From the NCBI GenBank assembly GCA_964347045.1, contig CAYFXC010000031.1:1498-15637 (forward strand): a DNA stretch of 14,140 nt. Direction: 5' to 3'. Below the pieces are notes generated by a model that saw only the letters and a list, made by a program, of their open reading frames with translations, ran no database searches and was not told where the DNA came from. The stretch is from an uncultured archaeon. Lineage in GTDB: Archaea; Asgardarchaeota; Hermodarchaeia; Hermodarchaeales; Hermodarchaeaceae. The position numbers and the translations under genes are program-made. Below, piece after piece: positions 1 through 14,140 of this stretch; positions within the stretch are counted from its first letter, which is position 1, and each line of letters starts with the position of its first letter.

Positions 1-7
1 ACACCTT

Positions 8-31
8 AGTTATATCTGTTGAGATATATCT
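8..31. promoter_or_regulatory. ModE-type palindromic operator (9-6-9), in the likely promoter of a minus-strand gene starting left of the window
   Basis: AGTTATATC-TGTTGA-GATATATCT, 16/24 identical to the tupA box with the same geometry. On the minus strand it lies between a TATA-like TTTAAGTA (46-39) and an SD-like AGGTG (6-2). Confidence 0.55.
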
Positions 32-318
32 ATTCTGATACTTAAAAAAATGCTCTGATGCCTAGAAGATGGGAGCCAAAGAATCCTGGTGGCCTAATAA
101 GACGATGTGCAATTCCTAAAAAATGACGTGAACGACAATTAATTGCTCTTGTACCGGAGGTAGGGAAGCGCTATCATTGAGAATCTATAGATTAATCCCT
201 TTAAACTCCCCTAATTGGATGTTTCAAAGCCAATTCAATAAAAAAGATATGCATTTTGAATACGTTGAGTATTGCAGCAATTTTATTTTCAAAGTGTTAA
301 TTGCATCCATACGGGATG

Positions 319-368
319 TCGAAGACATATATGTTGTTTCTTACAAATGATGTGAAGGATGATTTGTT
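319..368 (+). repeat. Dispersed intergenic repeat, copy A
   Basis: TCGAAGACATAtaTGTtgTTTCTTAcaAATgATGTgAAGgATGATTTGTT; about 41/50 identical to 3855-3903 by manual alignment. Confidence 0.85.
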
Positions 369-447
369 TCAAATAATATCTTTTGCTCAAAATGCTACTT
401 GGCTTACTCTTGTATAAGAAGAACACTTAGTGCCATTGAAAAAAATC

Positions 448-1155
448 TCATGATGAAGATTTCGTATTTGGATAATAGACATTGTAAATCTGGAATGGGG
501 ATCCTCCCAAGGCATACCATACTCGGCAAAGCAAGAATTTTCCAATATACTGGATTAATCCATGCTTTCGATATCCTTCCGCACTTGTTTCAACCTTTTC
601 CTTTAGCAATACTACGCGACCATGTTTGTGCATACATTGAGCCAATCGAAGGTCTTCGAAAAGTGGAACTTCAAGCACGGGCATACAGCGCTTTAGAATT
701 TTGGAGCGTATGAACATGGCACGATCTCCATAGAGTTCCCCTGAGATTCGAAACCACTGATTCACCATCCAAATACCTACGTCAAGGTACGGTGCAGGGG
801 TGTCATAGGTCATTGAAAAGCCTCCACCGACCACTGTTGGGTCTTCCAATGCAGAAAGAATCGCTTGATCCCATCTAGGGGGCGGAAGGGTGTCGGAATG
901 AAGAAAAAAGGTGATGTCACTGGCAATATGCGCGATTCCCTTAAGAAATACAAATCCCCGTCCTTTTCGAGAGGAGACAACAACGAGCTCATTCGAGGCT
1001 TGGGGTGTAATCAGTGGAACAAGTTCTGGATTGTTTAACACCAAGATCAGCTGTATTGGCACAGTTACCGAGGACATAACCTTCCGAATTTCAGGGATTC
1101 TGTTGTTAGTGGAATGTATGGGAATAATCACAGAGATTAGGGAGGAATCGACCAT
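448..1155 (-). CDS. GT2-family glycosyltransferase, TIGR04283-like (ArsS-associated)
   Basis: ISVIIP start, KGRG, FLHSDT, GGGF, YGDRAMFIRS (family YGDQxxFxR) and PLFED motifs. ATG at 1155 preferred over GTG at 1164. A T-run follows the stop on the minus strand. Confidence 0.8.
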   Translation of the reverse strand: MVDSSLISVIIPIHSTNNRIPEIRKVMSSVTVPIQLILVLNNPELVPLITPQASNELVVVSSRKGRGFVFLKGIAHIASDITFFLHSDTLPPPRWDQAILSALEDPTVVGGGFSMTYDTPAPYLDVGIWMVNQWFRISGELYGDRAMFIRSKILKRCMPVLEVPLFEDLRLAQCMHKHGRVVLLKEKVETSAEGYRKHGLIQYIGKFLLCRVWYALGGSPFQIYNVYYPNTKSSS

Positions 1156-1273
1156 AGTGTACACCGTGCGATTTTATTCAGAAAGTGCTTTAGAATCAAA
1201 AATAGTTATACATATCATTATCCCAAATATTCTATCAGGTTGATTTTGGAAGCAATTGAAAGGGGTTAATACA

Positions 1274-2029
1274 TTGTCAAATGAAATTTCACCCGATACT
1301 AGCTTTGAAAAGCCAAATAAATATCAAGTCGGTCCTGGGTATGGTCTTCTGTTCATGGGGATATTGTACCTGATTTTTTGGCTCCTACCGTTCACAATTG
1401 AATCCTATATCGGAGATCCGCGATGGTCACATAACTGGGTTTATGCCTTGATTATTATCACAATAGCTGCCGCATTTTTTCAAAAGACTGTAGCGAGTAG
1501 AGTCGTTGCGTTCCTCCAAGCATTATTAATGCCGATCACTGCGAGTGGCGCAATTAATACAACAGTGCTGACCCTCGCTGCTCTGGTACTCCTCTTAGTA
1601 TGGATTATCATTGTGTTGGTTGAACGCAGAAATAACAGACCCCTTATTGATAACCGATTCTCCCGTCGTACTCAGAATTGGATAATTATGCATTCTCTAA
1701 TTGTCTGTTGGCTTCTACTGGCACATATGGGCTTGGTCTTTTTCCTTAGTCGATTACCCTTTGAAGCACAACTGGACATCCTTGGCACTAGTTTGGGGCA
1801 AAGTTTAGGTTTCTTGTTAAATCTTCCCATCGAGCGGTTTGATCTCGTCGTCTATGTGTTTGATATTAACCTAATCATTCTAGCGCTTCTCTTTGTATAC
1901 GAACAACTCAAGTTAGGTTATAATCCACAGAATAAGCCTTGGCCAAGAATCAGTTTCTACTTTCTAATCATCACCCTAGCGTTAGGCTTTGCACTACTTC
2001 CATTCACTCTCCAAGGTATTATTCCATGA
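1274..2029 (+). CDS. Polytopic membrane protein of unknown function (about 7 hydrophobic segments)
   Basis: Long ORF with repeated hydrophobic stretches. SD-like AGGGGT at 1261-1266 precedes TTG 1274 (ORF is open from 1256). No family recognised. Confidence 0.75.
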   Translation: MSNEISPDTSFEKPNKYQVGPGYGLLFMGILYLIFWLLPFTIESYIGDPRWSHNWVYALIIITIAAAFFQKTVASRVVAFLQALLMPITASGAINTTVLTLAALVLLLVWIIIVLVERRNNRPLIDNRFSRRTQNWIIMHSLIVCWLLLAHMGLVFFLSRLPFEAQLDILGTSLGQSLGFLLNLPIERFDLVVYVFDINLIILALLFVYEQLKLGYNPQNKPWPRISFYFLIITLALGFALLPFTLQGIIP

Positions 2030-2053
2030 TACATTGACTGCATTTGCATCCAA

Positions 2054-2770
2054 TCATGGGAAAAGAATGGACAGAATCTCTGGATGGCTACGAAGATACT
2101 TCATCGTGTGTAGAGCTTGTGAGGGCTTCAACTCGTGAGTCTTATAGAATTCTTGGAGGGTTTCTTTCGTGTCGATATCGGGCCATTCAGGCAACACATG
2201 GATCTGTGTGGGTTCTGCTTCGATTTTGGCGAAAGTTTCCTGAAACACGGTTGCGGTGCCCCAAGAAATGTCTTGAAAGATGTTAGCAAAGGGAAAATCG
2301 GAGGAAAAGCCGGTTAGATAATAGCCTCCATCGGGTGCAGGTCCAATTACAAACTTGTGTGTTTGGAGAGTAGTTACCGCGGTTCTTAGAATCTCTGCGG
2401 GTAAATCTGGGCAATCACTTGCGAGGGCGATTACCGTTTGATATTGTTGCTTAAACATCATAGTAAATCCATTCTGGAGTCGTTCACCAAGATTTGTCCC
2501 TTGTTGGGGGAAGCATCTATATGAAGATCCTAACCATTGGGTTAATTGTTCTAGAGATTCTGGAGGATAAACGGCAAGGTGAAAGGGAATATTGAGCGAT
2601 TGGACGGTTGTGAGTGTGTCTTGAATAAAGGTCCGATAGAGACTCGCTGCGGCCTCTGCTCCTATGGTTTCTGCGAGTCGTGACTTCACTTTTCCCGCCT
2701 CTGGATACTTCATCATGATGAAAATCCCGGGGCGCAAGGTATGTGTAGACATGTTTAGATTCGCGCTCAT
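2054..2770 (-). CDS. TIGR04282/DUF2064 family transferase (CofC-like nucleotide-diphospho-sugar transferase fold)
   Basis: KYPEAGKVKSRL, QQGTNLGERL, ASDCPDL, GPAPDGGYYL, ISWGT and DIDT motifs. ATG at 2770 has AGGA upstream and lies 10 nt after the arsS stop; 2752 is an alternative start. Confidence 0.88.
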   Translation of the reverse strand: MSANLNMSTHTLRPGIFIMMKYPEAGKVKSRLAETIGAEAAASLYRTFIQDTLTTVQSLNIPFHLAVYPPESLEQLTQWLGSSYRCFPQQGTNLGERLQNGFTMMFKQQYQTVIALASDCPDLPAEILRTAVTTLQTHKFVIGPAPDGGYYLTGFSSDFPFANIFQDISWGTATVFQETFAKIEAEPTQIHVLPEWPDIDTKETLQEFYKTHELKPSQALHTMKYLRSHPEILSILFP

Positions 2771-2780
2771 TTTTCCTTGG

Positions 2781-3746
2781 TTATCGCTCGATGACGCCTT
2801 CACAAGAGGATCCGAATCCTGCTGTGCAGCCAAAACAGTGCGGACCAGTTACTATCTTACGAGTTCTATGGGAACGGCGATCAAAGCGATCGATATGGTT
2901 TGGCTTAGCGGCAACAGGAAGTTTGAGCGCGAAATTGAAGTCGCAATCATAGATTAGTCCATCCCAGCCAACACACACTTGATGGCGGCACATCAAGTTC
3001 TTCACGGTTTCCGGATTGAACGCGGCTTCTAGTTGCTGTTGATACTGGATGGCTTGTTGCTTGGCTTCCAACAGTTGTTGAAATCGCCCTATTGGCATAT
3101 TCGTGATGGTCAACAGACGATTGAAATGGATATCATATTCGGTTAACAGTATTTCTTTGTATGTGACTTCTAATTTGGATTGTTTCGGCGGCAAAAAGGC
3201 ACCTTCCGGATTAAAGACAAGATTCAACTCTAACTCGGGATTAACTCCATATCCTAACTTGTTGAGCATTTGGAGAATTTTTATGCTCTTCTTAAAGACA
3301 CCTCTCCCCCGTTGTCGGTCCACATCGGCTTCTAGATAGCAGGGAAGGGATCCAACTAGTCGAATCTGAAGATCACGATACAGCTCCATTAATGCTTTTA
3401 GCTCTGGATCCATGAGTACGGTAAGGTTTGTTCGTACTTGAACCTTGTAATCTTTGTTGTTTAAAGATTGAAGAAACCGAGGAAGTGAAGGGTTCAATTC
3501 TGGTGCTCCACCCGTGATATCCACGAGTTCGGGATGTATTTGTTCTGCAACGTTAAGAACGTGTTCCATGAGCTTCCAGCTCATAATATCTGTGCTAGTA
3601 GGTGTGGCTTGTAGATGACAATGGACACACAGCTGATTGCACCGATTCCCCACATTTACCTGTAACGTCTTCTGGGTTAAGCCTATTAATTTGGAACCTG
3701 TTTCGTTGAGTATTTGTTGATTGAATATTGTTATTGTTTGCACCAT
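2781..3746 (-). CDS. arsS: Radical SAM/Cys-rich protein, ArsS family (TIGR04167, DUF3641 C-terminus)
   Basis: LQVNVGNRCNQLCVHCH (CxxxCxxC), DITGGAPEL, SLPCY, VDRQRG, ITNMPIGRF, LMCR, YDCDFN, HCFGCTAGFGSSC. Start is ATG 3746 or TTG 3788. Confidence 0.92.
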   Translation of the reverse strand: MVQTITIFNQQILNETGSKLIGLTQKTLQVNVGNRCNQLCVHCHLQATPTSTDIMSWKLMEHVLNVAEQIHPELVDITGGAPELNPSLPRFLQSLNNKDYKVQVRTNLTVLMDPELKALMELYRDLQIRLVGSLPCYLEADVDRQRGRGVFKKSIKILQMLNKLGYGVNPELELNLVFNPEGAFLPPKQSKLEVTYKEILLTEYDIHFNRLLTITNMPIGRFQQLLEAKQQAIQYQQQLEAAFNPETVKNLMCRHQVCVGWDGLIYDCDFNFALKLPVAAKPNHIDRFDRRSHRTRKIVTGPHCFGCTAGFGSSCEGVIER

Positions 3747-3813
3747 CACAAATTGAATTCCGCTTTCCGTGAAAATACCTTCAAGCAATTTGCATATACA
3801 TTTTTCCTAAGAG

Positions 3814-3832
3814 CAACTTGTTAAACAAGTTG
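3814..3832. promoter_or_regulatory. Perfect palindrome upstream of arsS (possible operator)
   Basis: CAACTTGTT-A-AACAAGTTG, 9-bp arms, in the divergent arsS/dsrE intergenic region. Confidence 0.45.
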
Positions 3833-3852
3833 TTATCTACGGTTGGCTTGAT

Positions 3853-3903
3853 TTTCGAAGACATACTTGTAATTTCTTATTAATAATGTAAAGATGATTT
3901 GTT
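3853..3903 (+). repeat. Dispersed intergenic repeat, copy B
   Basis: tttcgaagacatacttgtaatttcttattaataatgtaaagatgatttgtt; matches copy A (about 41/50) and copy C (26/29). Confidence 0.85.
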
Positions 3904-4065
3904 AATTGCAAATTGTTTTATGTGGTTTCTGCAAGGTAACTTAACAGTGTTAAATTGGTTGAGCCGCGATAGTAGGTACCACAGTGGAACAAGCTGTTGA
4001 TATTGGGTTCTATCGTTTTCAACCAAATGGATAGACTGTTCAAACTAAAAAAGGAATGATAAAAA

Positions 4066-4419
4066 TTGCCAACAATATTGTATGTGCAGACAAGCGATGA
4101 TCCGGAAAGGCAGTACTCGCCGCTGGTCTTGGCTCAGACAGCGAAGGCGATGGATGTGGATGCAATCGTGTACTATCTGGGGCAAGGTCTGCGAACTCTG
4201 AAACCTGGAGTTGCTGAGAAGATTCAGGTGGGTAGCTTTCCGAGTGTGGCAGATATGTTGAAGGAGACCATAAAGCAAGGGATTCCCGTGATGGTCTGTG
4301 AAGCCTCCAAGCAGATGCTTGGATGGGAAAAAGTGGAACTTATTGAGGGCTGTAAAATAGTTGGTGCCGCAACATTAAATGACCTCGCTTTAGATGCCGA
4401 TGCAACCATGTGGTTCTAG
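4066..4419 (+). CDS. DsrE/DsrF-family protein (putative sulfur carrier)
   Basis: 117 aa with the DsrE pattern DDPER..P..LA.TA.AM, YLGQG, conserved VCEAS cysteine and IVGAA. TTG start with AAGGA upstream. Confidence 0.85.
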   Translation: MPTILYVQTSDDPERQYSPLVLAQTAKAMDVDAIVYYLGQGLRTLKPGVAEKIQVGSFPSVADMLKETIKQGIPVMVCEASKQMLGWEKVELIEGCKIVGAATLNDLALDADATMWF

Positions 4420-4561
4420 AAGCAGACCAAAGGCGATCTCATTACTAGTAGTGTGTTGATGCCTGTTCAGGTGTTTGTATGCTAAGGTGCATCCTAGCCC
4501 AGAATCGAGTCTAGATGCAGCATAAAAATGAATCCCATTAAAAGAGTGGTGACACTTAAAG

Positions 4562-4723
4562 TTAAGAATGTTCAACAGTGTCAAACTGCCGAGTAGGGAA
4601 ATTTCGACAGCCGTCTTTGAAGATATACGATTTCTGAGTTATCGAAGCCCATACACAAAATACACATTCTGAAAGTTGTTGTAAGCAAGTGCTTTTTTCA
4701 CAATAGAGCACGTCATTTTTCAT
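4562..4723 (-). CDS. Possible small Cys-rich protein (53 aa)
   Basis: MKNDVLYCEKSTCLQQLSECVFC...GC: five Cys including CxxC, in otherwise empty intergenic space. No clear SD. Confidence 0.3.
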   Translation of the reverse strand: MKNDVLYCEKSTCLQQLSECVFCVWASITQKSYIFKDGCRNFPTRQFDTVEHS

Positions 4724-4832
4724 ATCTTTTATGCTAATCTTTCTTCTTCTTTTTTTGTTGAACATTACGTCATTCCGTGTTTTACATTGATTTTTGAAGG
4801 CAAAACAGTGAAATATGGGTATGCTGTTATGA

Positions 4833-4856
4833 CGTTATGTTTGTATAAACATATCG
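4833..4856. promoter_or_regulatory. ModE-type operator upstream of tupA
   Basis: CGTTATGTT-TGTATA-AACATATCG, 8/9 arm symmetry, resembles the bacterial ModE box CGnTATATA-N6-TAYATAnCG; ends 10 nt before the tupA ATG. Confidence 0.8.
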
Positions 4857-4866
4857 GTGGAATTGC

Positions 4867-5883
4867 ATGCGAAAAGAGATGAAGATTCTTTCAGCAATCA
4901 TGGTCATTGTCATCGTATCCACAAGCGCAGCCACTATATACTATTTTAGTCAACTCCAAAATAAGCAAAATCTTGTAATTTCAACAACAACCAGCCTTTA
5001 TGATACAGGCTTACTAGATCTAATCAAACAAAGGTATGAGCAATCAAATCCAAAAGTTCTGGTAAAGTTTATCTCTGCAGGTACCGGTATTGCAATAACT
5101 CACGCAAAGAAAGGAGATGCCGACTTGATCCTTGTCCACTCTCCTTCACAGGAACTAGCCTTTATGGAGGAGGGATATGGGGTCAATCGACGAATTTTTG
5201 CATATAACTTCTTCACCATTATAGGACCATCGTATGATCCTGCCGGAATACATCAAACAGATCCCATTGAAGCTTTTCAGAGGATATACGAATACGGGAA
5301 TAACCATGGTATTGCCGTCTGGGTTTCTAGGGATGATTTGTCTGGTACTAATTCCAAGGAAATCGCGCTTTGGAATGCTGCAGGATTTGATTATGAAGTC
5401 ATAAGAGACGAACCATGGTTCGTCTCTTCGGGTACTGGAATGGGCGCTAGCTTGCGACTTGCGGATGAACGTAATCTCTATTCTCTATCAGATATCGGTA
5501 CATATCTCAAGTACTTTTCTGATGGTTTGATCCGCCTAGCCCAGCATGTTGACCAGGGAGAAGCGTTATTGAACGTCTATAGCGCTATTGTCGTGAACCC
5601 ACAAAATGTTTCAAATGTGAAGTATGAACTTGCGATGGAATTCGTTCTATGGCTTGTAAGTGAAAATGTACAACAATTGATTGGGGAATACGGAGTCTCC
5701 GAGTATGGGAGCCAGTTATTCTTTCCTGCTGTTCAAATCCTGCAGTCTCAATTGCCCAATGAGATCTATACCTGGATTAGGGATCATGCATTCTTTGAAG
5801 CAGGAGGCCTACTTTTCGAGTGTCCTCCGCAATGGCAGATGGGCGGCTATAGTCTATCTAGGGAGCACCATATTTTGAGCTGA
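4867..5883 (+). CDS. tupA: Tungstate ABC transporter substrate-binding protein
   Basis: N-terminal membrane anchor; STTTSLYDTGLL (TTTS TupA signature), GTG, LVHSP, SRDDLSGT, GMG, LLNVYS. Confidence 0.93.
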   Translation: MRKEMKILSAIMVIVIVSTSAATIYYFSQLQNKQNLVISTTTSLYDTGLLDLIKQRYEQSNPKVLVKFISAGTGIAITHAKKGDADLILVHSPSQELAFMEEGYGVNRRIFAYNFFTIIGPSYDPAGIHQTDPIEAFQRIYEYGNNHGIAVWVSRDDLSGTNSKEIALWNAAGFDYEVIRDEPWFVSSGTGMGASLRLADERNLYSLSDIGTYLKYFSDGLIRLAQHVDQGEALLNVYSAIVVNPQNVSNVKYELAMEFVLWLVSENVQQLIGEYGVSEYGSQLFFPAVQILQSQLPNEIYTWIRDHAFFEAGGLLFECPPQWQMGGYSLSREHHILS

Positions 5884-5888
5884 CAGAA

Positions 5889-6551
5889 ATGGTTTTGCAT
5901 ATTGAGTTAATACAAATTACACTTCAATCGCTGTTCATTTCCGGTATGGCTGCACTAATCGCCGCGGCTGTGGGACTTCCACTTGGGCTCATTTTGGGCA
6001 TAAAACAGTTCAAAGGCAGATCCTTCATTATTGGTATCGTTAATTCTCTCATGGGTATTCCTACTGTTGCCTTGGGGTTAATTCTCTATCTCGTCTTTTC
6101 AAATACAGGGCCTTTGGGGTTTTTTGACTTGCTCTATACGCCTCAAGCCATTATCATCGGGCAATCGATTCTAATTTTGCCAATCATGATTAGCATTACA
6201 ACAGAGACCATTGTGAATGTTGATCCATCTATCCGAGAGCTAGCCCTAACATTGGGTGCAGATGAAAAGGCTGCAGCCTTCTGTTCATTGCGTGAATCCG
6301 TTGGTGGAATCGTTTTTGCAATTTCTACTAGTTTTAGTCGGGCAATTGCTGAGCTTGGTGTGGCGCTGATGGTTGGTGGCAATATACGCGGGTTGACACG
6401 AGTAATTACCACTGCAATTGCCCTTGAAACTGTGCGGGGAGAGATTGCGCTGAGCCTTGGATTGACGGCTATTCTCATTGCATTGATTCTGGTGGTCAAT
6501 GGCCTGTTGGGGTTGCTAAAGAAACGTTTTCAGTGGTGGCTATGGGAATAA
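5889..6551 (+). CDS. tupB: Tungstate ABC transporter permease
   Basis: MGIPTVALGL, GPLG..LLYT, TLGA, RAIAELGVALMVGGNIRGLTR.ITTAIALET. Confidence 0.93.
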   Translation: MVLHIELIQITLQSLFISGMAALIAAAVGLPLGLILGIKQFKGRSFIIGIVNSLMGIPTVALGLILYLVFSNTGPLGFFDLLYTPQAIIIGQSILILPIMISITTETIVNVDPSIRELALTLGADEKAAAFCSLRESVGGIVFAISTSFSRAIAELGVALMVGGNIRGLTRVITTAIALETVRGEIALSLGLTAILIALILVVNGLLGLLKKRFQWWLWE

Positions 6552-7615
6552 TTGAGTTAAGGAATGTGACAGTGGACTTTGATTCAGTGCGAGCAATAGA
6601 GAATATCAACTTGACAATTACAACAGGGGAAATGTTTGCCTTAATTGGTCCAAATGGGGCTGGGAAAACCACGATTCTGAAAGTAATTGCGGGGCTTCTC
6701 AAACCTTCAGAGGGCGAACTGTGGTATCAGGGTAACCTGATAACCGATTCAACGAGGCAAAAAGTAAGAAGCCAAGCACCGTTAGTTTTTCAGAAGCCAG
6801 TCTTGTTTGGCACATCGGTGTTCAAGAATGTAGCCTATGGTCTGAGAATGCGTAAAATAAAGGAGACTGAAGTACGACGTCGAGTGGAAGCGGCATTAGA
6901 ATTAGTCGAACTGAACCATCTTCAAAACCGGTTTGCGCGAGAACTCTCAGGAGGGGAACAACGAAGGGTATCCCTTGCGATGGCCGTGGCACTTGATACT
7001 GAAATGATTTTACTGGATGAACCCACTGCCTTCCTCGATCCTGAGAACACCAAAATCGTTGAAAGCACATTACACTATCTGAACAAGGAGCAAAATACGA
7101 CTATTATTGTTGTGACTCACAACATGCTTCAAACTGAGTTGTTAGCGCATAGAGCTGCCATTGTACAACATGGTCGTATTGAGCGCACAGGGTATGCGAG
7201 AGAAATCTTTAGAGCCGAACTCGAGAACCTATTAATTGCTGACCAATCAGTAAATACCTTCAAAGGTATAGCAAAGGCTATTGGTCCTAAAACATTCGGA
7301 GGTCAACTCGTGAACATTCAATTAAATAATAACGTGAATGTTGAGGCTATATCAAATCAGGAGGGGGAAGTTACTATAATGATCCCCCCGGAAGATATCA
7401 TAGTATCCCCACAAGAGATTCTCTCTAGTGCAAAGAACGCCCTTCAGGGACGAATAATACAGATTCAGCAGCAGCCCTCCACAGTCTTATTGACCATCGA
7501 TGTAGGTGTTGAGCTCTTGGCACAAATTACAATTGCCTCATTGGATCGGCTCAATATAGGACAAGGTGACCGGGTTCATGTGACGTTCAAAGCCTCCTGT
7601 GTTCGCGTTTATTAG
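6542..7615 (+). CDS. tupC: Tungstate ABC transporter ATPase with C-terminal TOBE domain
   Basis: Walker A GPNGAGKT, LSGGE signature, ILLDEP, VTHN. C-terminal SSAKN...QIT..S...FKAS TOBE. ATG overlaps the tupB end. Confidence 0.92.
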   Translation: MGIIELRNVTVDFDSVRAIENINLTITTGEMFALIGPNGAGKTTILKVIAGLLKPSEGELWYQGNLITDSTRQKVRSQAPLVFQKPVLFGTSVFKNVAYGLRMRKIKETEVRRRVEAALELVELNHLQNRFARELSGGEQRRVSLAMAVALDTEMILLDEPTAFLDPENTKIVESTLHYLNKEQNTTIIVVTHNMLQTELLAHRAAIVQHGRIERTGYAREIFRAELENLLIADQSVNTFKGIAKAIGPKTFGGQLVNIQLNNNVNVEAISNQEGEVTIMIPPEDIIVSPQEILSSAKNALQGRIIQIQQQPSTVLLTIDVGVELLAQITIASLDRLNIGQGDRVHVTFKASCVRVY

Positions 7616-7646
7616 AAGCCAGAATATAATACATCGAAAGGAGTCT

Positions 7647-8222
7647 GTGAGGAAATTGCCATCAACTGAACCAAACCCGACTGTGAAAATCTGGTTAGAA
7701 CGAAAAGGACAGCCAATCCTAGGGGCAGGTGGAGCGACACTTTTGGCGGCAATTAATCAGCTGGAAAACTTAACCAAAGCCGCACAGGCCGTGGGGATGT
7801 CATATCGCTATGCGTGGGGGTATTTACGGCGTATCGAAAGAGCACTTGATGAGCCCATAGTGACACGACAAAAGGGCGGAGCTAAAGGTGGCGGCAGCAT
7901 GATATTGACAACCTTAGGTAGAAAATTACTGCGACAATATACACGGTTTGATGAATTCGTTCGATTTTCTTTGAAGAATCCAGAACTTTGGGAAGCATAT
8001 GGGCTCGAAGCACGTACAACAAACCGATTACCCGGACGCATCGAATCCATCACAGCCGATCAAGAAGTTGCGGCAATTAAAATCGCCGTTCCTAGAGGAT
8101 TACCGTTGATCGCAATTATTACACGTGAGTCAGTTGAGCATTTTCAACTAGAGGAGGGACAACATTTGTTTGCAGTGATTAAAGCCACGGAAGTCATGGT
8201 CGAAACAAAAAACGAGGACTGA
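7647..8222 (+). CDS. modE: ModE-family regulator (winged HTH plus one TOBE/Mop domain)
   Basis: KIWL, LLAAI...LTKAAQAVGMSYRYAW, KGGAKGGG..LT..G, then a TOBE domain (ITRES, AVIKATEV). Start is probably GTG 7647 or TTG 7656. Confidence 0.88.
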   Translation: MRKLPSTEPNPTVKIWLERKGQPILGAGGATLLAAINQLENLTKAAQAVGMSYRYAWGYLRRIERALDEPIVTRQKGGAKGGGSMILTTLGRKLLRQYTRFDEFVRFSLKNPELWEAYGLEARTTNRLPGRIESITADQEVAAIKIAVPRGLPLIAIITRESVEHFQLEEGQHLFAVIKATEVMVETKNED

Positions 8223-8228
8223 AAGAAG

Positions 8229-8441
8229 ATGAAGTTAAGCGCACGCAACAAGGTTCCAGTAAGAGTGGAAAAAATAGAAAAAGGGTCAGTTGTGTGTAGG
8301 GTCTTTTTGCGCGTTGAAGATTTGACTATATTAACCGCTGTGATTCGGCGAAAAGCCCTTGATGAACTTATCTTAGTTGAAGGCGATGGGGTAGAAGCGG
8401 TTGTGAAAGCCACTGAGGTTATGCTTCTGGACGAAGATTAA
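8229..8441 (+). CDS. Stand-alone Mop/TOBE (molbindin-like) protein
   Basis: 70 aa, MKLSARN...AVVKATEVM. GAGGA SD at 8214-8218. In frame with modE. Confidence 0.85.
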   Translation: MKLSARNKVPVRVEKIEKGSVVCRVFLRVEDLTILTAVIRRKALDELILVEGDGVEAVVKATEVMLLDED

Positions 8442-8516
8442 ACGCTTGGCTGAATACGACTCTCCTCTCTTATTCTGGTAATTCGTGTGTTGGTTCTCAG
8501 AATTTAGGGGACAAGG

Positions 8517-8559
8517 TTATAAATCAACAAGCAATAAATATGCACACTCGTACATATCT
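8517..8559 (+). promoter_or_regulatory. TATA box plus ModE-type operator upstream of moaB
   Basis: TTATAAA at 8517-8523, then AAATATGCA-CACTCG-TACATATCT at 8536-8559 (7/9 arm symmetry, 6-nt spacer). Confidence 0.6.
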
Positions 8560-8597
8560 TAGCAAGTTTTTATCCAAAGCTATGGGGCGACTGGCGA

Positions 8598-9131
8598 TTG
8601 TCCAAAAAGCGAGAAATTTCCACTTCATCAAATGCGCATCGTGCCGTTGCAACCAAGACGGCGACTTTCTTTGTTGTAGTCGTATCGACTTCTAAATCAA
8701 TGACGCCTGCCGACGATAAAAGTGGGGCTCTTCTTGTTAAAAGCCTGCAGAGTTTTGGTCATCAAGTGAATGAAATGAAATTCGTTCCTGATGAAGCCAG
8801 TGCCATCACGAAAGCTCTAACAGAAGCAATCGCTATACCGAGTGTTGAAGCAATAATTTTTACTGGCGGCACTGGATTGACCAGAAATGATATCACCATT
8901 GAAACGATAGTACCACGATTCAGAAAAGAATTGGCTGCTTTTTCAACCCTATTTAGTTTACTAACCTATGAGGCAATTGGAACTGCTGCATTACTTTCAA
9001 GGGCTACAGCGGGAGTGATTGGTGATAAGGCGATTTTTTGCATTCCTGGAAGCCCACATGCTTGTCAATTGGCTGTTGAACGTATTATTGGTCCGGAGAT
9101 TGGACATATTTTGAAACACGCTCATGAATAG
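8598..9131 (+). CDS. moaB: Molybdopterin adenylyltransferase, MoaB/MogA family
   Basis: VVVSTS, DKSG, VPDE, TGGTG, DIT.E, LSRATAG, PGS. Confidence 0.92.
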   Translation: MSKKREISTSSNAHRAVATKTATFFVVVVSTSKSMTPADDKSGALLVKSLQSFGHQVNEMKFVPDEASAITKALTEAIAIPSVEAIIFTGGTGLTRNDITIETIVPRFRKELAAFSTLFSLLTYEAIGTAALLSRATAGVIGDKAIFCIPGSPHACQLAVERIIGPEIGHILKHAHE

Positions 9132-9148
9132 GAGGCATTGCGGGAGTT

Positions 9149-10369
9149 ATGACGAAACAGGGATTTGGGAAGCTTTTGTCTCTAAAAAACGCCTTATCAA
9201 TTGTGCAATCAGTTGTCACTGTCATTGATGATGAACCGGTTCTCTTGGAACAAGCTTTTGGTCGGATTGTAAGTCAAGACATTACTGCACCGATTGATGT
9301 GCCACATTTTCGAAAATCCGCCATGGATGGATATGCAGTTGTAGCCGAGGGCCTTTTCGGGGCTTCCACTTCAACACCTAAACAACTTCGATGTGTTGAC
9401 ACGATTCGTGCTGGTCAAACGCCTCGGAAAAAGATCTCCCATTTAGAATGTGCTGAAATTGCCACAGGGGCACCTTTACCCGAAGGAGCTGATGCAGTCG
9501 TTATGGTCGAATACACCGAACGTGAGAAGGATCAGGTGACCTTCTTCAAGAGCGTTGCCCCACAAGAAAATGTAATTCTCATAGGCTCCGATATTACCAA
9601 AGGAGATGTAGTACTCAAACAAGGAACTATGCTGACTCCCCGTCACACTGGTGTCCTTTCAGCCTTAGGATTCTCAGAAGTTACTGTTCGAAAACGTCTG
9701 AAAATTGGAGTTTTTTCAACAGGGAATGAAATTCAAGAGCTGGGTGAAATACCAGATATCGGAAAAATTTTTGATATCAACCGACGGGCAATTATCGACG
9801 CGCTCATTGGTGATGGGTGTGAGGTCATTGACCTCGGTCTTGCCTTAGATGACCCAGAATCGATTGCCCAAACTCTTCGCAAAGGTCTTCAAACCTGCGA
9901 TCTTATAATTACCTCCGGTGGATCATCTCTTGGAGCCGAGGACTGTATTGTTGAGGTTACAGATACACTCGGCGAAGTTTTAGTTCATGGGATTGCCGTA
10001 AAACCTGGCAAACCTACAACAATTGGGAAAATTAACAACAAACTGTTCTTTGGTCTTCCAGGTCACCCAATGTCCGCACTTTCAATTTATTATATCATAG
10101 TGCGCCCTGTCCTCTTTGCAATGCTTAAGGCTGAAATTCCGAAACGTCACATTTACGGAACATTGGCTACAAAAGTGGTAAGCACAATTGGACGATATGA
10201 ATTCTTACCTGTAAAAATCGAGGAACACGAAAAGCGTATTCAAATACTTCCAGTTATGAAGGGCTCCAGCGCCATCACATCCTTGACCTTAGCTGATGGA
10301 TTTATTGAGATCGAGGAAAATACTGAGGTGTTACCTCGTGGAACTGAGGTGACTGTGACACTATTTTGA
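9149..10369 (+). CDS. moeA: Molybdopterin molybdenum/tungsten transferase
   Basis: PHFRKSAMDGYAV, IATGAPLPEGADAVVMVE, STGNE, SGGSS, KPGKP, GLPGHP. Confidence 0.95.
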   Translation: MTKQGFGKLLSLKNALSIVQSVVTVIDDEPVLLEQAFGRIVSQDITAPIDVPHFRKSAMDGYAVVAEGLFGASTSTPKQLRCVDTIRAGQTPRKKISHLECAEIATGAPLPEGADAVVMVEYTEREKDQVTFFKSVAPQENVILIGSDITKGDVVLKQGTMLTPRHTGVLSALGFSEVTVRKRLKIGVFSTGNEIQELGEIPDIGKIFDINRRAIIDALIGDGCEVIDLGLALDDPESIAQTLRKGLQTCDLIITSGGSSLGAEDCIVEVTDTLGEVLVHGIAVKPGKPTTIGKINNKLFFGLPGHPMSALSIYYIIVRPVLFAMLKAEIPKRHIYGTLATKVVSTIGRYEFLPVKIEEHEKRIQILPVMKGSSAITSLTLADGFIEIEENTEVLPRGTEVTVTLF

Positions 10370-10383
10370 GGACGTTGGACTCT

Positions 10384-10833
10384 ATGCAGACCGGTATTAT
10401 ACGCGCAGTATGTATCAGTGAAAAGCGTGGCACACCCAAGATAAATGTTCAACAGGCCACTCTCATCAAAAATTTTGGTGTACAAAATGATGCTCATGGC
10501 GCCCCAGGAATTCGAGAGGTTTCATTATTGGGCGTTGAAAGTATCGAAAAGATGCACCAACAAGGCATTGAAGTTCCCTATGGAGGATTTGGTGAAAACC
10601 TCACGACAGAAGGAATACTTCTCTATAAGCTACCTCTTGGGACATTCTTACAAGTGGGACCAACGTTATTGGAAGTTACACAAATTGGTAAAGAATGTCA
10701 TTCCCCCTGTGCAATCGGACAAGCTACTGGAAAATGCGTTATGCCTGAGGAAGGTGTCTTTGCCCGTGTACTGAAAGGCGGACATGTTCGTGTAGGCGAT
10801 CAAATTCGAATAATAAAGAGGAATTCAGCATGA
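10384..10833 (+). CDS. MOSC domain protein
   Basis: AVCISEKRG, DAH, FGENLT, LEVTQIGKECH, MPEEGVFARV. ATG 10384 preferred over TTG 10366. Confidence 0.9.
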   Translation: MQTGIIRAVCISEKRGTPKINVQQATLIKNFGVQNDAHGAPGIREVSLLGVESIEKMHQQGIEVPYGGFGENLTTEGILLYKLPLGTFLQVGPTLLEVTQIGKECHSPCAIGQATGKCVMPEEGVFARVLKGGHVRVGDQIRIIKRNSA

Positions 10834-11759
10834 GTATACAAGTCAACCAAACTCAAGAATTAAAGAAAATGCTCGTGGATCAATATGGTCGAACGATTAC
10901 TCATTTCCGTGTCTCAGTGACTTCAAAATGCAATCTATCATGCTCTTATTGCCATAAGGAAGGTCACTTAGCTAAGAAACCAGATATGTCCATTGAGCTA
11001 ATCAGAAGGATTACTGAAGTGGCCGAGCGCTGGGGCATTCTAAACTTCAAAATAACAGGAGGGGAACCCCTTCTCCGTCCTGACATCACTAGAATTGTCA
11101 GTATCATTGCAGAAACGCATGGTATCAAAGATATTTCACTGACCACTAATGGCTATCGCCTTGCAAAACTAGCTCGTCCGCTAAAGCAGGCAGGCCTTAC
11201 ACGTGTCAATATTGGCTGTGATTCATTGTCCGGTCCACAACTTCCCAAGAACGTTGACACCATATCTGCAGGTCTCGCTGCAGCTACAGCTGCAGGATTA
11301 GCTCCTATTAAACTAAATATGGTCTTGCTTCGCGGTATTAATGACCATGAGATTACACAAATGATTGAATTTGCCCAAAATAATGACTGTATACTCCAAC
11401 TGATTGAACTCATACCTATAGATTACAATTTCTTCAAGGCGCATCATGTCGATATGACGCCTGTAGAACAATGGCTCAAAACAAAAGCGAAGCAAGTAAT
11501 CATTCGGACCATGCAAAGTAGGAAACAGTACATACTTCCCAAAACAATAGTAGAAGTGGTCCGTAGCCTACATAATCCGGCTTTTTGCCGTCAGTGCAAT
11601 AAGCTCCGTGTCACGAGTGATGGGAAATTTAAACCATGTTTAATGCGTGAAGACAATCTCGTGACAATCGACCCTAATAGTATTGAAGCAAATTTGGCCA
11701 TAGCATTAGAACATCGCGCACCCTATTATCTAGAAGAGCAAACCCGACTAGATAAATAA
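10830..11759 (+). CDS. moaA: GTP 3',8-cyclase (radical SAM)
   Basis: D.YGR, RVSVT.KCNLSCSYCH.EG, TGGEP, LTTNG, and the C-terminal FCRQCNKLRVTSDGKFKPCL cluster motif. Confidence 0.95.
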   Translation: MSIQVNQTQELKKMLVDQYGRTITHFRVSVTSKCNLSCSYCHKEGHLAKKPDMSIELIRRITEVAERWGILNFKITGGEPLLRPDITRIVSIIAETHGIKDISLTTNGYRLAKLARPLKQAGLTRVNIGCDSLSGPQLPKNVDTISAGLAAATAAGLAPIKLNMVLLRGINDHEITQMIEFAQNNDCILQLIELIPIDYNFFKAHHVDMTPVEQWLKTKAKQVIIRTMQSRKQYILPKTIVEVVRSLHNPAFCRQCNKLRVTSDGKFKPCLMREDNLVTIDPNSIEANLAIALEHRAPYYLEEQTRLDK

Positions 11760-11804
11760 CACAAATTTGATCATATCTTGAGCAATCATCACCAGGTGGA
11801 ATTT

Positions 11805-12251
11805 ATGACACGAATGGTTGATACCTCCGACAAAAAAGATCTACACCGCATGGCAATAGCACGAGGACGCATCTATTTGCAACCTGAAACTCTTAACCAA
11901 ATCCAGAACAAAACTATCAAGAAAGGTGATCCCTTTCCAGTTGCAGAGATTGCTAGCATACTTGCAGCGAAAAATACTCCAACAATTATCCCGCTTTGCC
12001 ATCAAATTCCTCTGACTGACATAGCTACAGAATTTGCAATAAAAGAGAATTATCTTGAGGTGACTGTTACAATCAAAGCTGTTGCTAAAACTGGTGTTGA
12101 GATGGAAGCTCTAGTTGCAGTTTGTGCTGCACTAACCAATATTTGGGATATGACTAAATACATTGAGAAGGACAAAGCGGGGCAATATCCAACAACAAGA
12201 ATTTCTGACATTCAAATACTAAGGAAGGAAAAGTTTGAGGATACGGTGTGA
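11805..12251 (+). CDS. moaC: Cyclic pyranopterin monophosphate synthase
   Basis: MVDTS.K, KKGD, AAK.T..IIPLCH, TGVEMEAL, WDM.K. SD-like AGGTGG precedes ATG 11805. Confidence 0.95.
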   Translation: MTRMVDTSDKKDLHRMAIARGRIYLQPETLNQIQNKTIKKGDPFPVAEIASILAAKNTPTIIPLCHQIPLTDIATEFAIKENYLEVTVTIKAVAKTGVEMEALVAVCAALTNIWDMTKYIEKDKAGQYPTTRISDIQILRKEKFEDTV

Positions 12252-12326
12252 AGTTCTTACGGAAGGAAGGTGTTCTTCTCAAGATTTAGAATAGAAGATC
12301 AACTCTTGGTTCGGAAGTCTTAGGAA

Positions 12327-13397
12327 ATGAAAATACTAGCTTTGGATATTGGAGTAGGAACTGTGGATATTCTTCTTTTTGACGACAAAAAAACAAGCAT
12401 TGAAAATTGTATTAAAATGGTTTTGCCCTCGCCCTCCCAAATCTTTGCTGTGAAAGTTCAAGAGGCCACTAAGCGGATGACAGATCTTTTCATTCAAGGA
12501 GATATTATAGGCGGCCACTCATTTACTTCAGCTTTAAAAAAGCACCTAAAGAAGAAACTTCGCGTCATAGTTACAGAGCCAGTCGCATATAGTATCCGTA
12601 ATAACCTTGAGGAAGTAAAACAACTGGGAATTGAGATAGTACAAGAAAGTCCACCTAGTCAGTTTGACGGGGAAATCTTAACAATCTCAGAAATCAACCT
12701 TTTGGAGTTAGAAAAGTTTCTAAGTAATTCTAATGAAACTATCTATGATGTTGATGTTGTAGCTATTGCTGTGCAAGATCATGGAGTGGCACCACACCGA
12801 ACAAGTAATCGAAAGTTTCGCATTCAGCAGATGAAAGCTCAGTTAATGTCAAATTCTCGACTAGAAAATCTAGCCTATTGGAGCCAAGACATTCCATCTC
12901 ATTTCTTAAGAATGAAATCAGCCGCTACAGCGGTTAAGAAACAACTTCCCTCTGTACAAGTTTTATTAATGGATACTGCACCCGCAGCAATACTTGGAGC
13001 TCTACAGGACCCAGCGGTAAAAACCGCAAATCTTGTCCTTAGTGTTAATATTGGCAATGGGCACACTATGGCCGCAATCATCAAAAGTGACCAAATTATC
13101 GGATTGATGGAACATCATACTAGGTACTTACCTCCCCGAAAAGTTGAAAAAATGCTAGTGGACTTTGTTGATGGAAAAATCAGTGATGACGAAATTTTCG
13201 AAGACCGTGGACATGGACTATTCTTTCTTACCCATCCTCCAACCTTCAAGCAACTTGAAAAAATCGTAGTAACCGGTCCCAATAGACTTCGCTTAACCAA
13301 TGCAAACTTCTCGATTCATTTTGCTGCTCCAGGTGGTGATGTCATGATGACAGGACCAATAGGGTTGGTAGAAGCAGTGAAAAAGAAATCACAATGA
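12327..13397 (+). CDS. DUF1786 family protein (ASKHA/actin-like ATPase motifs)
   Basis: MKILALDIGVGTVD, ENCIKMVLPSP, AVQDHG, SNRKFR, MDT, NIGNGHT, EHHT, GHG, TGPNR, APGGDVMMTG. Confidence 0.85.
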   Translation: MKILALDIGVGTVDILLFDDKKTSIENCIKMVLPSPSQIFAVKVQEATKRMTDLFIQGDIIGGHSFTSALKKHLKKKLRVIVTEPVAYSIRNNLEEVKQLGIEIVQESPPSQFDGEILTISEINLLELEKFLSNSNETIYDVDVVAIAVQDHGVAPHRTSNRKFRIQQMKAQLMSNSRLENLAYWSQDIPSHFLRMKSAATAVKKQLPSVQVLLMDTAPAAILGALQDPAVKTANLVLSVNIGNGHTMAAIIKSDQIIGLMEHHTRYLPPRKVEKMLVDFVDGKISDDEIFEDRGHGLFFLTHPPTFKQLEKIVVTGPNRLRLTNANFSIHFAAPGGDVMMTGPIGLVEAVKKKSQ

Positions 13398-13408
13398 AGT
13401 AGGGAAGA

Positions 13409-13420
13409 TTTCTTTTTTTT
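13409..13420 (+). terminator. Oligo-T terminator candidate
   Basis: TTTCTTTTTTTT starting 12 nt after the DUF1786 stop, at the end of the moa operon. Confidence 0.5.
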
Positions 13421-13497
13421 CTGCAAAGTGAATTTCTCGCCCAAGAGATTAAATGCAGTAAGGCTAATTTTGGTAAGTTATTAGCCTTCCTGATAAG

Positions 13498-13526
13498 TTT
13501 CGAAGACATACCTGCAATTCTCTTAT
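13498..13526 (+). repeat. Dispersed intergenic repeat, copy C
   Basis: tttcgaagacatacctgcaattctcttat; 26/29 identical to 3853-3880; lies between convergent genes. Confidence 0.85.
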
Positions 13527-13560
13527 ATTTTGAAGATTTTCATGGTTGGACTGAATTTCT

Positions 13561-14140
13561 CTAGAGCCATTTTTTTCTTCGAAAGAAGAACAACATTAGC
13601 ACGAGGAGAGCTATTATGAATGGTATGGAAATGATTGGTGAGATATTAATAGTCAAACCAAAGATACCGGTTAGTAAAGAAAGGGGGATGAAAATTGTGG
13701 CAAATATCGTTAGGATTTTAATAACTTCATTTAAGCGATAACTGATGCTTGAAAAAAAGATGTCAAGCAAAACGGGAATTTTCTCATGGAAAGTATCAAC
13801 CGCTTCAGCGATTTGGACTAAGTTTTCATGCACATCATGAAAGTAAATTAGAAGTTCTTGATTTATTAAAGAAATCCGACCGCGTTCCAGACGGCTGGTG
13901 ACCTCTCGCAATGGTAAGATCCATTTGCGTAATAATGAAATTTGTCCCTTGAGGTTATGAATTCCTCGCAGTGTTTCGTTTGTGGGGTTTTCGACTAAAT
14001 CATCCTCAAAAAATTCAATTTTGCTCTCAATCTTTTCGATGTCTTTGAAGTAATTTTCAACCACAACATCTAACAAGGAAAAGGCAAGATAATCATTTTT
14101 CATTTTTCGAATCTTTCCCTTCTTCAAACGTATTCGTTCT
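13561..14140 (-). CDS. corA: CorA-family cation channel, 3' part (5' end outside the window), with atypical signature
   Basis: DYL...LLDVVVENYF, PLREV, YFHDVHE, LNEVIKILTIFATIFIPL, RRKKWL terminus. The frame is open to the window edge. Confidence 0.85.
   Translation of the reverse strand, partial: ERIRLKKGKIRKMKNDYLAFSLLDVVVENYFKDIEKIESKIEFFEDDLVENPTNETLRGIHNLKGQISLLRKWILPLREVTSRLERGRISLINQELLIYFHDVHENLVQIAEAVDTFHEKIPVLLDIFFSSISYRLNEVIKILTIFATIFIPLSLLTGIFGLTINISPIISIPFIIALLVLMLFFFRRKKWL

Follow-up and report, generated by a model that had tools for sequence, protein, structure and literature searches.

Co-oriented repeats in a Candidatus Hermodarchaeum contig are probably the junctions of a chromosomal gene-cassette array

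Three repeats separate the gene blocks of the locus

The stretch of DNA analyzed here, referred to as the window, comprises 14,140 nucleotides of a Candidatus Hermodarchaeum (Asgard) genome and corresponds to positions 1498-15637 of contig C31 in genome G000, an assembly of 2.58 Mb in 83 contigs that is 89% complete. Contig-end overlaps join C31 to C38 and C38 to the 180-kb contig C3, which indicates that the region is chromosomal. The window carries three copies, designated A, B and C, of the 11-mer TCGAAGACATA, located at positions 319, 3855 and 13500. All three are exact, lie on the plus strand and are intergenic. The ArsS gene block lies between A and B, the dsrE/tup/moa block lies between B and C, and corA follows C, as had been described in an earlier examination of the letters alone (the sequence-only reading). 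When one mismatch was allowed, no additional TCGAAGACATA site was found in the window; shuffled sequences contained 0.30 sites on average, and none of 200 shuffles reached three. The results presented below indicate that the three repeats are probably junction sites of a chromosomal gene-cassette array.

The alignment of copies A and B has 41 identities over 50 positions and a single gap, in line with the first count. Similarity between B and C was also found, but over their shared head it comes to 24 of 27 positions rather than the 26 of 29 first given. The sequence-only reading had similarity starting sharply at the 11-mer, and this was not the case: a conserved left half, TTTTTC..GTTAT, precedes the core, and each of the three copies has GTTA at exactly 19 nt upstream of it. 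The 11-mer is best read as the meeting point of sequence belonging to the left cargo and sequence belonging to the right cargo. An imperfect dyad in copy B, GAAGACAT-N7-ATTTCTTA, had been likened to a recombinase core, a role in which it was rejected. Variable bases inside this dyad follow the right cargo, so that exchange would take place to its left, and the real dyad of the family is a 31-bp palindrome further right. The palindrome is decayed in A and B and nearly lost in C.

The junction element of copy A spans positions 278-393 on the plus strand (nhmmer E=4e-21, alignments and junction mapping), with its core at 319-329 and its dif-arm palindrome at approximately 347-377, where the right arm is decayed. 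The copy B element (3813-3904, plus strand, E=5.5e-13) has its core at 3855-3865. Compared to its duplicate at the end of contig C11, its palindrome (approximately 3883-3912) lacks the G of GTGAAA, and the right arm is replaced by TTAATTGC. The copy C element (13459-13559, plus strand, E=2.2e-10; core 13500-13510) has a strongly eroded head, and the palindrome as such is gone.

The element belongs to a family arranged in co-oriented arrays

Profile searches identify the window copies as worn members of a family of elements of approximately 100-125 nt. The consensus was generated from 17 copies at first and then from 28, and copies were counted at E<0.05 with an iterated nhmmer profile. The left part of the consensus reads TTTTTC..GTTAT, followed by approximately 16 variable nt and then TTTCGAAGAC.TA..TGC..TTTCTTAC. 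The right part is ATGAYGTGAAA GATGATTTG TTTCACRTCAT and ends at a sharp right edge. The length of the family is seen in the better copies on contigs C32 and C40, which extend approximately 60 nt rightward.

Approximately 28 copies were found in G000, confined to nine contigs (C31, C32, C38, C40, C44, C51, C55 and the ends of C11 and C21) that account for about 77 kb, or about 3%, of the 2.58 Mb. All of these copies are intergenic, and on each contig they share one orientation. The flanking genes occur in every orientation combination, which excludes a simple promoter or terminator. The core pattern was detected in 13 of the 14 other Candidatus Hermodarchaeum genomes and in none of the four genomes of the sister genus; positive genomes had 4-18 matches, compared to 0-1 for the reversed control, and all 27 contigs with at least two matches were uniform in orientation. 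In nhmmer maps of relatives and environmental contigs, the element formed dense arrays of a single orientation with a spacing of 0.5-4 kb, for example 8 copies per 9 kb and 9 copies per 14.7 kb. The named records that carry the element are metagenome-assembled genomes (MAGs) of Candidatus Hermodarchaeota or Candidatus Hermodarchaeum (Asgard), and lone 18-mer matches in unrelated bacteria were at about the chance level for that collection. The clustering of copies and their shared orientation were tests that the sequence-only reading had set, and both turned out in its favor.

The window sites had no match to an Rfam family and no tRNA gene; there was just a sub-threshold queA match inside dsrE. 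Several other identities for the element were considered and discarded. A small open reading frame (ORF) on the minus strand that starts ATG TCT TCG (MSSK...) loses its ATG in the better copies (ACGCA, ACGTA, AGGTA). A bacterial promoter of the extracytoplasmic function (ECF) type, GTTA-N19-TCGAA, does not fit an archaeal host or flanking genes that face all ways. A hairpin hidden in the approximately 16 variable nt left of the core was not supported, as the best stems averaged 3.2 nt compared to 3.3 nt in shuffles. A C/D-box small RNA (sRNA) from ATGATGTGAAAGATGA was rejected, by eye only, for its missing D box.

Homology between relatives switches at the core

The window was compared to 19 genomes of the order, and its homology was found to split at the sites across relatives, in agreement with the proposed coincidence of the repeats with synteny breakpoints. 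Positions 316-3762 and 3895-4535 matched contig C43 of genome G013, and positions 4825-13382 matched contig C11 of G013. The corA block (13518-14140) was found in G003 (C19) and G005 (C12) beside other element copies, unaccompanied by the moa block. Four arrays from three other genomes match the left flank of junction A through the core and diverge beyond it, whereas on contig C43 of G013 homology begins at the core and the left side is unrelated. At junction C, the eroded head moves with corA in three genomes, the same head accompanying corA in both G003 and G005. The order of cassettes differs between species; they contain from one to about ten genes, which may face either way. Clustering, co-orientation and synteny breakpoints support the earlier proposal that the repeats are recombination junctions of an undescribed gene-capture system, analogous to integron cassettes or pdif modules.

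The flanks of 62 element copies from eight genomes were compared. There were 16 pairs with the left flank alone in common, 16 with the right flank alone and none with both. Pairs that share the left flank had excess identity of +0.14 to +0.30 over unrelated pairs in each 10-column bin until just before TTCGAAGAC and none after it. In pairs that share the right flank, excess identity (+0.08 to +0.41) was confined to the columns after the core. In six same-left and nine same-right families, the bases directly before CGAAGAC track the left cargo and the bases directly after GAAGAC track the right cargo. The homology switch thus falls inside a core of 7-8 bp. Because the bases on either side of the core follow different cargo, exchange itself is assigned to the invariant 7-8 bp (T)CGAAGAC by this comparison. 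A length of 7-8 bp is the size of the overlap region of tyrosine recombinases. In one pair, the C11 end and copy B, high identity starts only at the spacer of the palindrome, which is compatible with a switch at that position.

A probable site-specific mechanism and its candidate enzyme

These alignments suggest that the array is most likely shaped by site-specific exchange at (T)CGAAGAC, carried out by a trans-acting recombinase. The sequence left of (T)CGAAGAC, with its oligo-T, GTTAT and approximately 16 variable nt, would be the tail of the upstream cassette. The sequence from the core rightward,.TA..TGC..TTTCTTAC and the 31-bp palindrome, would be the head of the downstream cassette. Cassettes are predicted to travel as circles that each carry one complete site. 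The site of a circle and a site already in the array would undergo conservative site-specific recombination, the strands being exchanged within the core, and such an insertion would recreate a full hybrid site on both sides and keep all sites pointing the same way. With less confidence, we propose that the enzyme may be encoded outside the arrays and act in trans, host XerA being the best candidate.

G000 contains only two tyrosine recombinase genes (PF00589). One of these encodes a conserved 315-amino-acid protein (C12:27168-28115) that scored 271 bits against the XerA model NF040815 (cut-off 220), and an XerA-type gene was present in all five relatives checked as well as in G000. Approximately 4 kb from the XerA gene lies a perfect 11-6-11 dif-type site, ATGATGTGAAA-CTGGTG-TTTCACGTCAT (C12:23258-23285, 28 bp), which matches the published definition of archaeal dif (PMC2958812). 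Across the genus there is typically one such site per genome, with conserved arms and a variable spacer, and the reversed control gave 0. Its distance to xerA is approximately 4 kb in G000, G010 and G012 and approximately 6.7 kb in G014. A second dif-type copy with a degenerate right arm was observed on the small contig C47 (4650-4677) and is possibly a pseudo-dif or the attachment (att) site of an integrated element.

The palindrome of the element consists of both 11-nt arms of the host dif-type site, spaced 9 nt apart rather than 6, and the 9-nt spacer is nearly invariant. XerA is the leading candidate because the element carries both of these arms. It is a candidate and not a conclusion, since the spacer is 9 nt long and near-invariant and exchange appears to lie approximately 20 nt to the left of the palindrome. 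We regard it as possible, though on balance doubtful, that host XerA is the recombinase of the array; XerA may instead be an accessory binder or uninvolved. An equally tentative and slightly more specific proposal, which we would not favor over its contrary, is that XerA has been recruited to a chromosomal gene-exchange platform, in which 11-9-11 dif arms would position the enzyme or an accessory complex and exchange would occur in the 7-8 bp core approximately 20 nt away. Serine recombinases and Y1/HUH transposases were also looked for, and none were found.

Several observations weigh against a site-specific array or against XerA as its enzyme. No recombinase gene lies beside any array, and no recurrent enzyme emerged when 344 ORFs in 353 kb of array sequence from more than 15 sources were clustered without bias. 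An array-borne enzyme was accordingly rejected as a candidate: the top ORF family is a surface repeat protein, and the rest are ordinary cargo. The exchange point lies approximately 20 nt left of the left Xer-type arm, outside the arms, and there is no convincing dyad symmetry around the core. Known Xer sites have spacers of 6-8 nt, a range that the 9 nt of the element exceeds. The breakpoints are not uniformly tied to a site either. In G000 contig C40 and in G011, homology breaks right after the dsrE stop codon at no recognizable site, and the three copies do not bound all functional blocks as first claimed, as there is at least one further breakpoint, at window positions of about 4420-4825, that has no intact site. 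No element could be detected on either side of the tup/moa block of G013; the downstream neighbors of this block map to array contigs of G000. Conserved gene order across the repeats, which the sequence-only reading had named as evidence to the contrary, was not the rule, but it was found at copy B. There G013 has the order ArsS-dsrE-C40 gene, with the ArsS-dsrE adjacency conserved across the site, as expected under some vertical inheritance. Finally, the comparison genomes are fragmented MAGs that are all related to each other, and the same-flank pairs reduce to just six independent families on the left and nine on the right.

The second tyrosine recombinase of G000 is XerA-like with a C-terminal CxxC...CxxC zinc ribbon and is encoded at the extreme end of a contig (C9:121090-122136). 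Its neighbors are housekeeping genes for endonuclease dU, Maf and Lrp/AsnC. Of five relatives checked for the domain, two encode a member of its family, which with G000 makes three genomes only; across the 19-genome order G003 alone gave a protein-level match. No close relative was found in the named-genome collection, and the contig of the relative carries no element. With these neighbors, the presence in three genomes only and the lack of an element on the relative's contig, it is unlikely to be the enzyme of the array. Approximately 45 nt upstream of the gene is an 11-8-11 dif-like site, ATGATACTAAA-TCGAATGG-TTTCACGTCAA, whose spacer includes TCGAA. The locus probably marks the edge of a separate integrated element with a dif-like sequence as its target.

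Comparison with described systems

The pdif modules of Acinetobacter plasmids (PMC13141974, PMC6449649) resemble the array in that they are enzyme-less modules bounded by sites with the arms of a host resolvase, are shuffled among replicons and carry multi-gene cargo facing either way. In contrast, pdif sites are plain 11-6-11 XerC/XerD sites of 28 bp with crossover in the spacer, whereas the element is approximately 110 nt long with a 9-nt spacer, and exchange would lie approximately 20 nt outside the arms. Further, pdif sites alternate in orientation to give C and D modules (PMC13141974), and all sites of the element are co-oriented. By these differences, the array falls outside the dif-module systems defined for Acinetobacter. 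The arrays are also chromosomal and archaeal with a single XerA, unlike pdif modules, which reside on plasmids. The archaeal XerA/dif system (Cortez et al. 2010, PMC2958812) is matched by the one XerA above cut-off and by the site, whose inverted arms of 11 bp are separated by a 6-bp spacer. The element differs from archaeal dif in that its spacer is 9 nt long and its most conserved part, in being present in dozens of copies and in having its exchange point elsewhere.

Co-oriented hybrid direct repeats also arise by tandem accretion at one att site, as in cis-mobilizable elements (CIMEs) and in arrays of integrative mobile elements exploiting Xer (IMEX) at dif, such as the Vibrio TLC-CTX arrays. 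Elements of this kind that lack an integrase can be mobilized in trans. The Hermodarchaeum arrays differ from these in that they contain dozens of units of 0.2-10 kb, no integrase remnants and no tRNA gene or chromosomal dif target, and in that they occur in 13 of the 14 other Hermodarchaeum species sampled. Against the generic description of a cassette array, we found a polar site at the joints, reshuffled cargo and a homology switch at a fixed short core; the exceptions are the breakpoints that lack a site. Literature searches returned descriptions of archaeal integrons, XerA/dif, Asgard mobile elements and dif modules, and no description of this array.

Alternative explanations

The array might be a classical integron, or a cluster of attC sites lacking integrases (CALIN) as reported in Asgard MAGs; Asgardarchaeota are reported to be enriched in integrons, most of which are CALINs (PMC9668308). 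Like these (PMC9668308), it is a chromosomal, co-oriented array in which one repeat splits unrelated cargo, the repeat is more alike within than between lineages, cassettes are reshuffled between species, junctions are hybrids of a tail and the next head, and most arrays have no adjacent integrase. GTTAT also bears a superficial resemblance to the attC R' box GTTRRRY. The defining features of integrons, a folded attC, the integrase IntI with its own additional domain and crossover at the R' box, were taken from Ghaly et al. 2022 (PMC9668308). RNAalifold predicted 0 pairs on 28 copies, and nine single-strand DNA folds were no better than those of shuffles (z from -1.9 to +1.0), with only local palindrome pairs. 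Compared to attC, the element is conserved in sequence rather than in structure, and it has no R and L boxes and no RYYYAAC partner box. The two tyrosine recombinases scored 154.9 and 49.8 bits on the IntI model TIGR02249, for which the cut-off is 265, although with 89% of the genome present the absence of IntI is unproven. Integron crossover occurs at G/TT of the R' box, whereas exchange in the element is placed approximately 20 nt right of GTTAT, up to the base before TTCGAAGAC. Integron cassettes are mostly single promoterless ORFs in one orientation, whereas these hold 0 to about ten genes, often several, facing either way. We consider it extremely improbable that the array is an integron or CALIN.

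A dispersed intergenic repeat, for example a relic of the repetitive extragenic palindromic (REP) or miniature inverted-repeat transposable element (MITE) type, could also have been reshuffled by ordinary homologous recombination with no site-specific enzyme. Such an origin would agree with the failure to find a dedicated enzyme, with the breakpoints that lack a site and with the late onset of identity between the C11 end and copy B. The core and the GAAAGATGATTTG block are, in addition, the longest near-invariant stretches and so would be favored for exchange. Random insertion, however, would not be expected to leave 27 of 27 contigs uniform in orientation. Pairs that share the left flank have no excess identity right of the core, though the head has more conserved sequence than the core, the switch falls within 7-8 bp in 15 independent families, and ten near-invariant bases are a very short substrate; we therefore judge this explanation unlikely. 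Another possibility is that a tail-swapping homing endonuclease built the array, the elements being cast-off ends of its target gene plus the downstream region. Polarity would follow naturally, and the oligo-T in the element tail is what is seen in the 3' flank of a gene. However, the profile search of the assembly returned no master copy joined to an intact gene, a coding frame is missing from the element (the minus-strand ATG having failed), and neither the arrays nor their surroundings contain a recurrent endonuclease family. The two halves of the site move with different cargo, a better fit to reciprocal exchange than to one-sided replacement, and the endonuclease scenario is highly improbable. 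A regulatory module or sRNA at operon boundaries, where breakpoints would accumulate because intergenic DNA tolerates them, would account for the intergenic position of all copies, for the oligo-T tract (an archaeal termination signal) at the cassette tail and for the palindrome, which could bind a dimeric regulator. It is at odds with a strictly polar element whose flanking genes occur in every orientation, with the location of copy C between convergent 3' ends, with the lack of an Rfam match and of a conserved fold and the shuffle-like folds of single copies, and with copies restricted to about 3% of the genome and a homology switch sharp to 7-8 bp. We assign this explanation hardly any weight, and site-specific exchange in a cassette array is retained as the probable reading.

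Integrons are the textbook prokaryotic route for storing and shuffling accessory genes. The archaeal integrons reported to date keep the bacterial enzyme and the folded site, whereas the Hermodarchaeum array would have a site defined by sequence, multi-gene packets and no enzyme of its own. If the XerA proposal were true, the archaeal lineage closest to eukaryotes would have a recombination-site architecture for which no counterpart has been described. The (T)CGAAGAC core offers a short, defined site for tests with purified XerA. The arrays would also account for the many small contigs that result when this part of Hermodarchaeum genomes is assembled.

Cassettes, cargo and minor features

A weak relic of the element, covering the core and head only, lies at positions 100-140 on the plus strand (C31:1597-1637; nhmmer E=0.01, profile positions 47-88). 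It is followed by a mini-cassette that starts at about 141 and has no ORF. The tail of the mini-cassette (177-318, plus strand), which ends at copy A, was assigned by homology and is approximately 80% identical to stretches in four arrays (one in G001, two in G010 and one in G013). It contains a local 10-bp hairpin, ATCTATAG...CTATAGA, with no meaningful covariation. The mini-cassette may represent an sRNA or a regulatory piece, or it may be an empty cassette. The first 55 nt of the window (1-55) are repeated exactly and in direct orientation 155 bp away, just left of the window (C31:1343-1397), and this may reflect either a short tandem duplication or an artifact of assembly at k=55.

Cassette 1, the arsenosugar block (319-3854), was annotated from NCBIfam matches and is homologous as a block to contig C43 of G013 over window positions 316-3762. 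It encodes two glycosyltransferases of the arsenosugar type, TIGR04283 (448-1164, minus strand) and TIGR04282 (2054-2833, minus strand), an ORF of unknown function between them (1256-2029, plus strand) and the radical SAM protein ArsS (2781-3788, minus strand). Cassette 2 (3855-4419, plus strand) contains a DsrE-like gene (4066-4419) with a weak match to NF047629 and was also found in G011 and G013. The rightmost 55-mer of contig C11 equals window 3936-3990, and the leftmost 55-mer of C40 equals window 4365-4419. The dsrE node of the assembly graph has two entries (copy B and the C11 end) and two exits (the tup/moa block and C40); the dsrE cassette is therefore either present twice or in two contexts within the sampled population.

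Cassette 3, the tungstate and molybdenum-cofactor block (4867-13397, plus strand), is co-linear with contig C11 of G013 at 74-77% identity. Its genes encode TupA, a permease and an ATPase-TOBE protein (tupABC), a ModE-like regulator, a MogA/MoaB-like protein, MoeA, a MOSC protein, MoaA, MoaC and DUF1786. A possible decayed boundary, GCAAG.GCTTTTTTC...CACGTCAT, was read directly from the sequence at 4680-4716 on the plus strand; it is missed by the profile and is tentative. The G013 C43 match stops to its left, at 4535, and the G013 C11 match begins to its right, at 4825. Three words of the form ACGTCAT or ACGTTAT lie upstream of tupA (4709-4716, 4766-4774 and 4829-4836); they may be half-sites of an operator bound by the ModE-like regulator, or what is left of right arms of the element. 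Cassette 4 is represented by the 3' part of corA (13561-14139, minus strand; TIGR00383), which runs on through the end overlap of C31 and C38 into C38 as far as the next element. Copy C is thus flanked by the 3' ends of DUF1786 (plus strand) and corA (minus strand). Hairpins specific to single copies were seen in the tails of the upstream cassettes, at 3813-3835 for copy B (CAACTTGTT-AAA-CAAGTTG) and at 13460-13489 for copy C (AAGGCTAAT...ATTAGCCTT). They might be local terminators and are not found family-wide.

Among the arrays sampled, the number of genes in a cassette ranges from 0 to about ten, and the genes may face either way. Their cargo includes genes for arsenic, tungsten/molybdenum-cofactor and magnesium handling, surface proteins, regulators and a TATA-binding protein (TBP) paralogue, and the other recurrent ORF families include transporters, regulators, redox proteins and a TBP paralogue. 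The edges of the array do not appear to be fixed, as PHO4 precedes the first detectable site in G000, yet has a preceding site in G014. The vps4 promoter was considered as a location of the element as well, but vps4 lies on contig C8 among ordinary neighbors and in none of the array loci. At the right edge in G000, before methionyl-tRNA synthetase, a gene of the PF00144 beta-lactamase family is split into two ORFs (C38:2784-4583). The TBP paralogue is a cassette gene at C40:3966-4517 (PF00352, 180 bits) and was seen again in arrays from three other sources. The commonest ORF family, found at 10 loci from eight sources, is a surface protein with repeats of approximately 45 residues and a C-terminal membrane anchor. 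Its loci include C32:2364-3734 and C21:8415-10367 of G000 and eight others in arrays, and it has no Pfam match. The protein begins with a signal or transmembrane segment, continues with repeats of the form WN.T.GG...GGFA..G.T.S.GAG..D.WL.RTD..GN and ends in a transmembrane anchor with a basic tail; the long forms have a PGF-type motif at this anchor.

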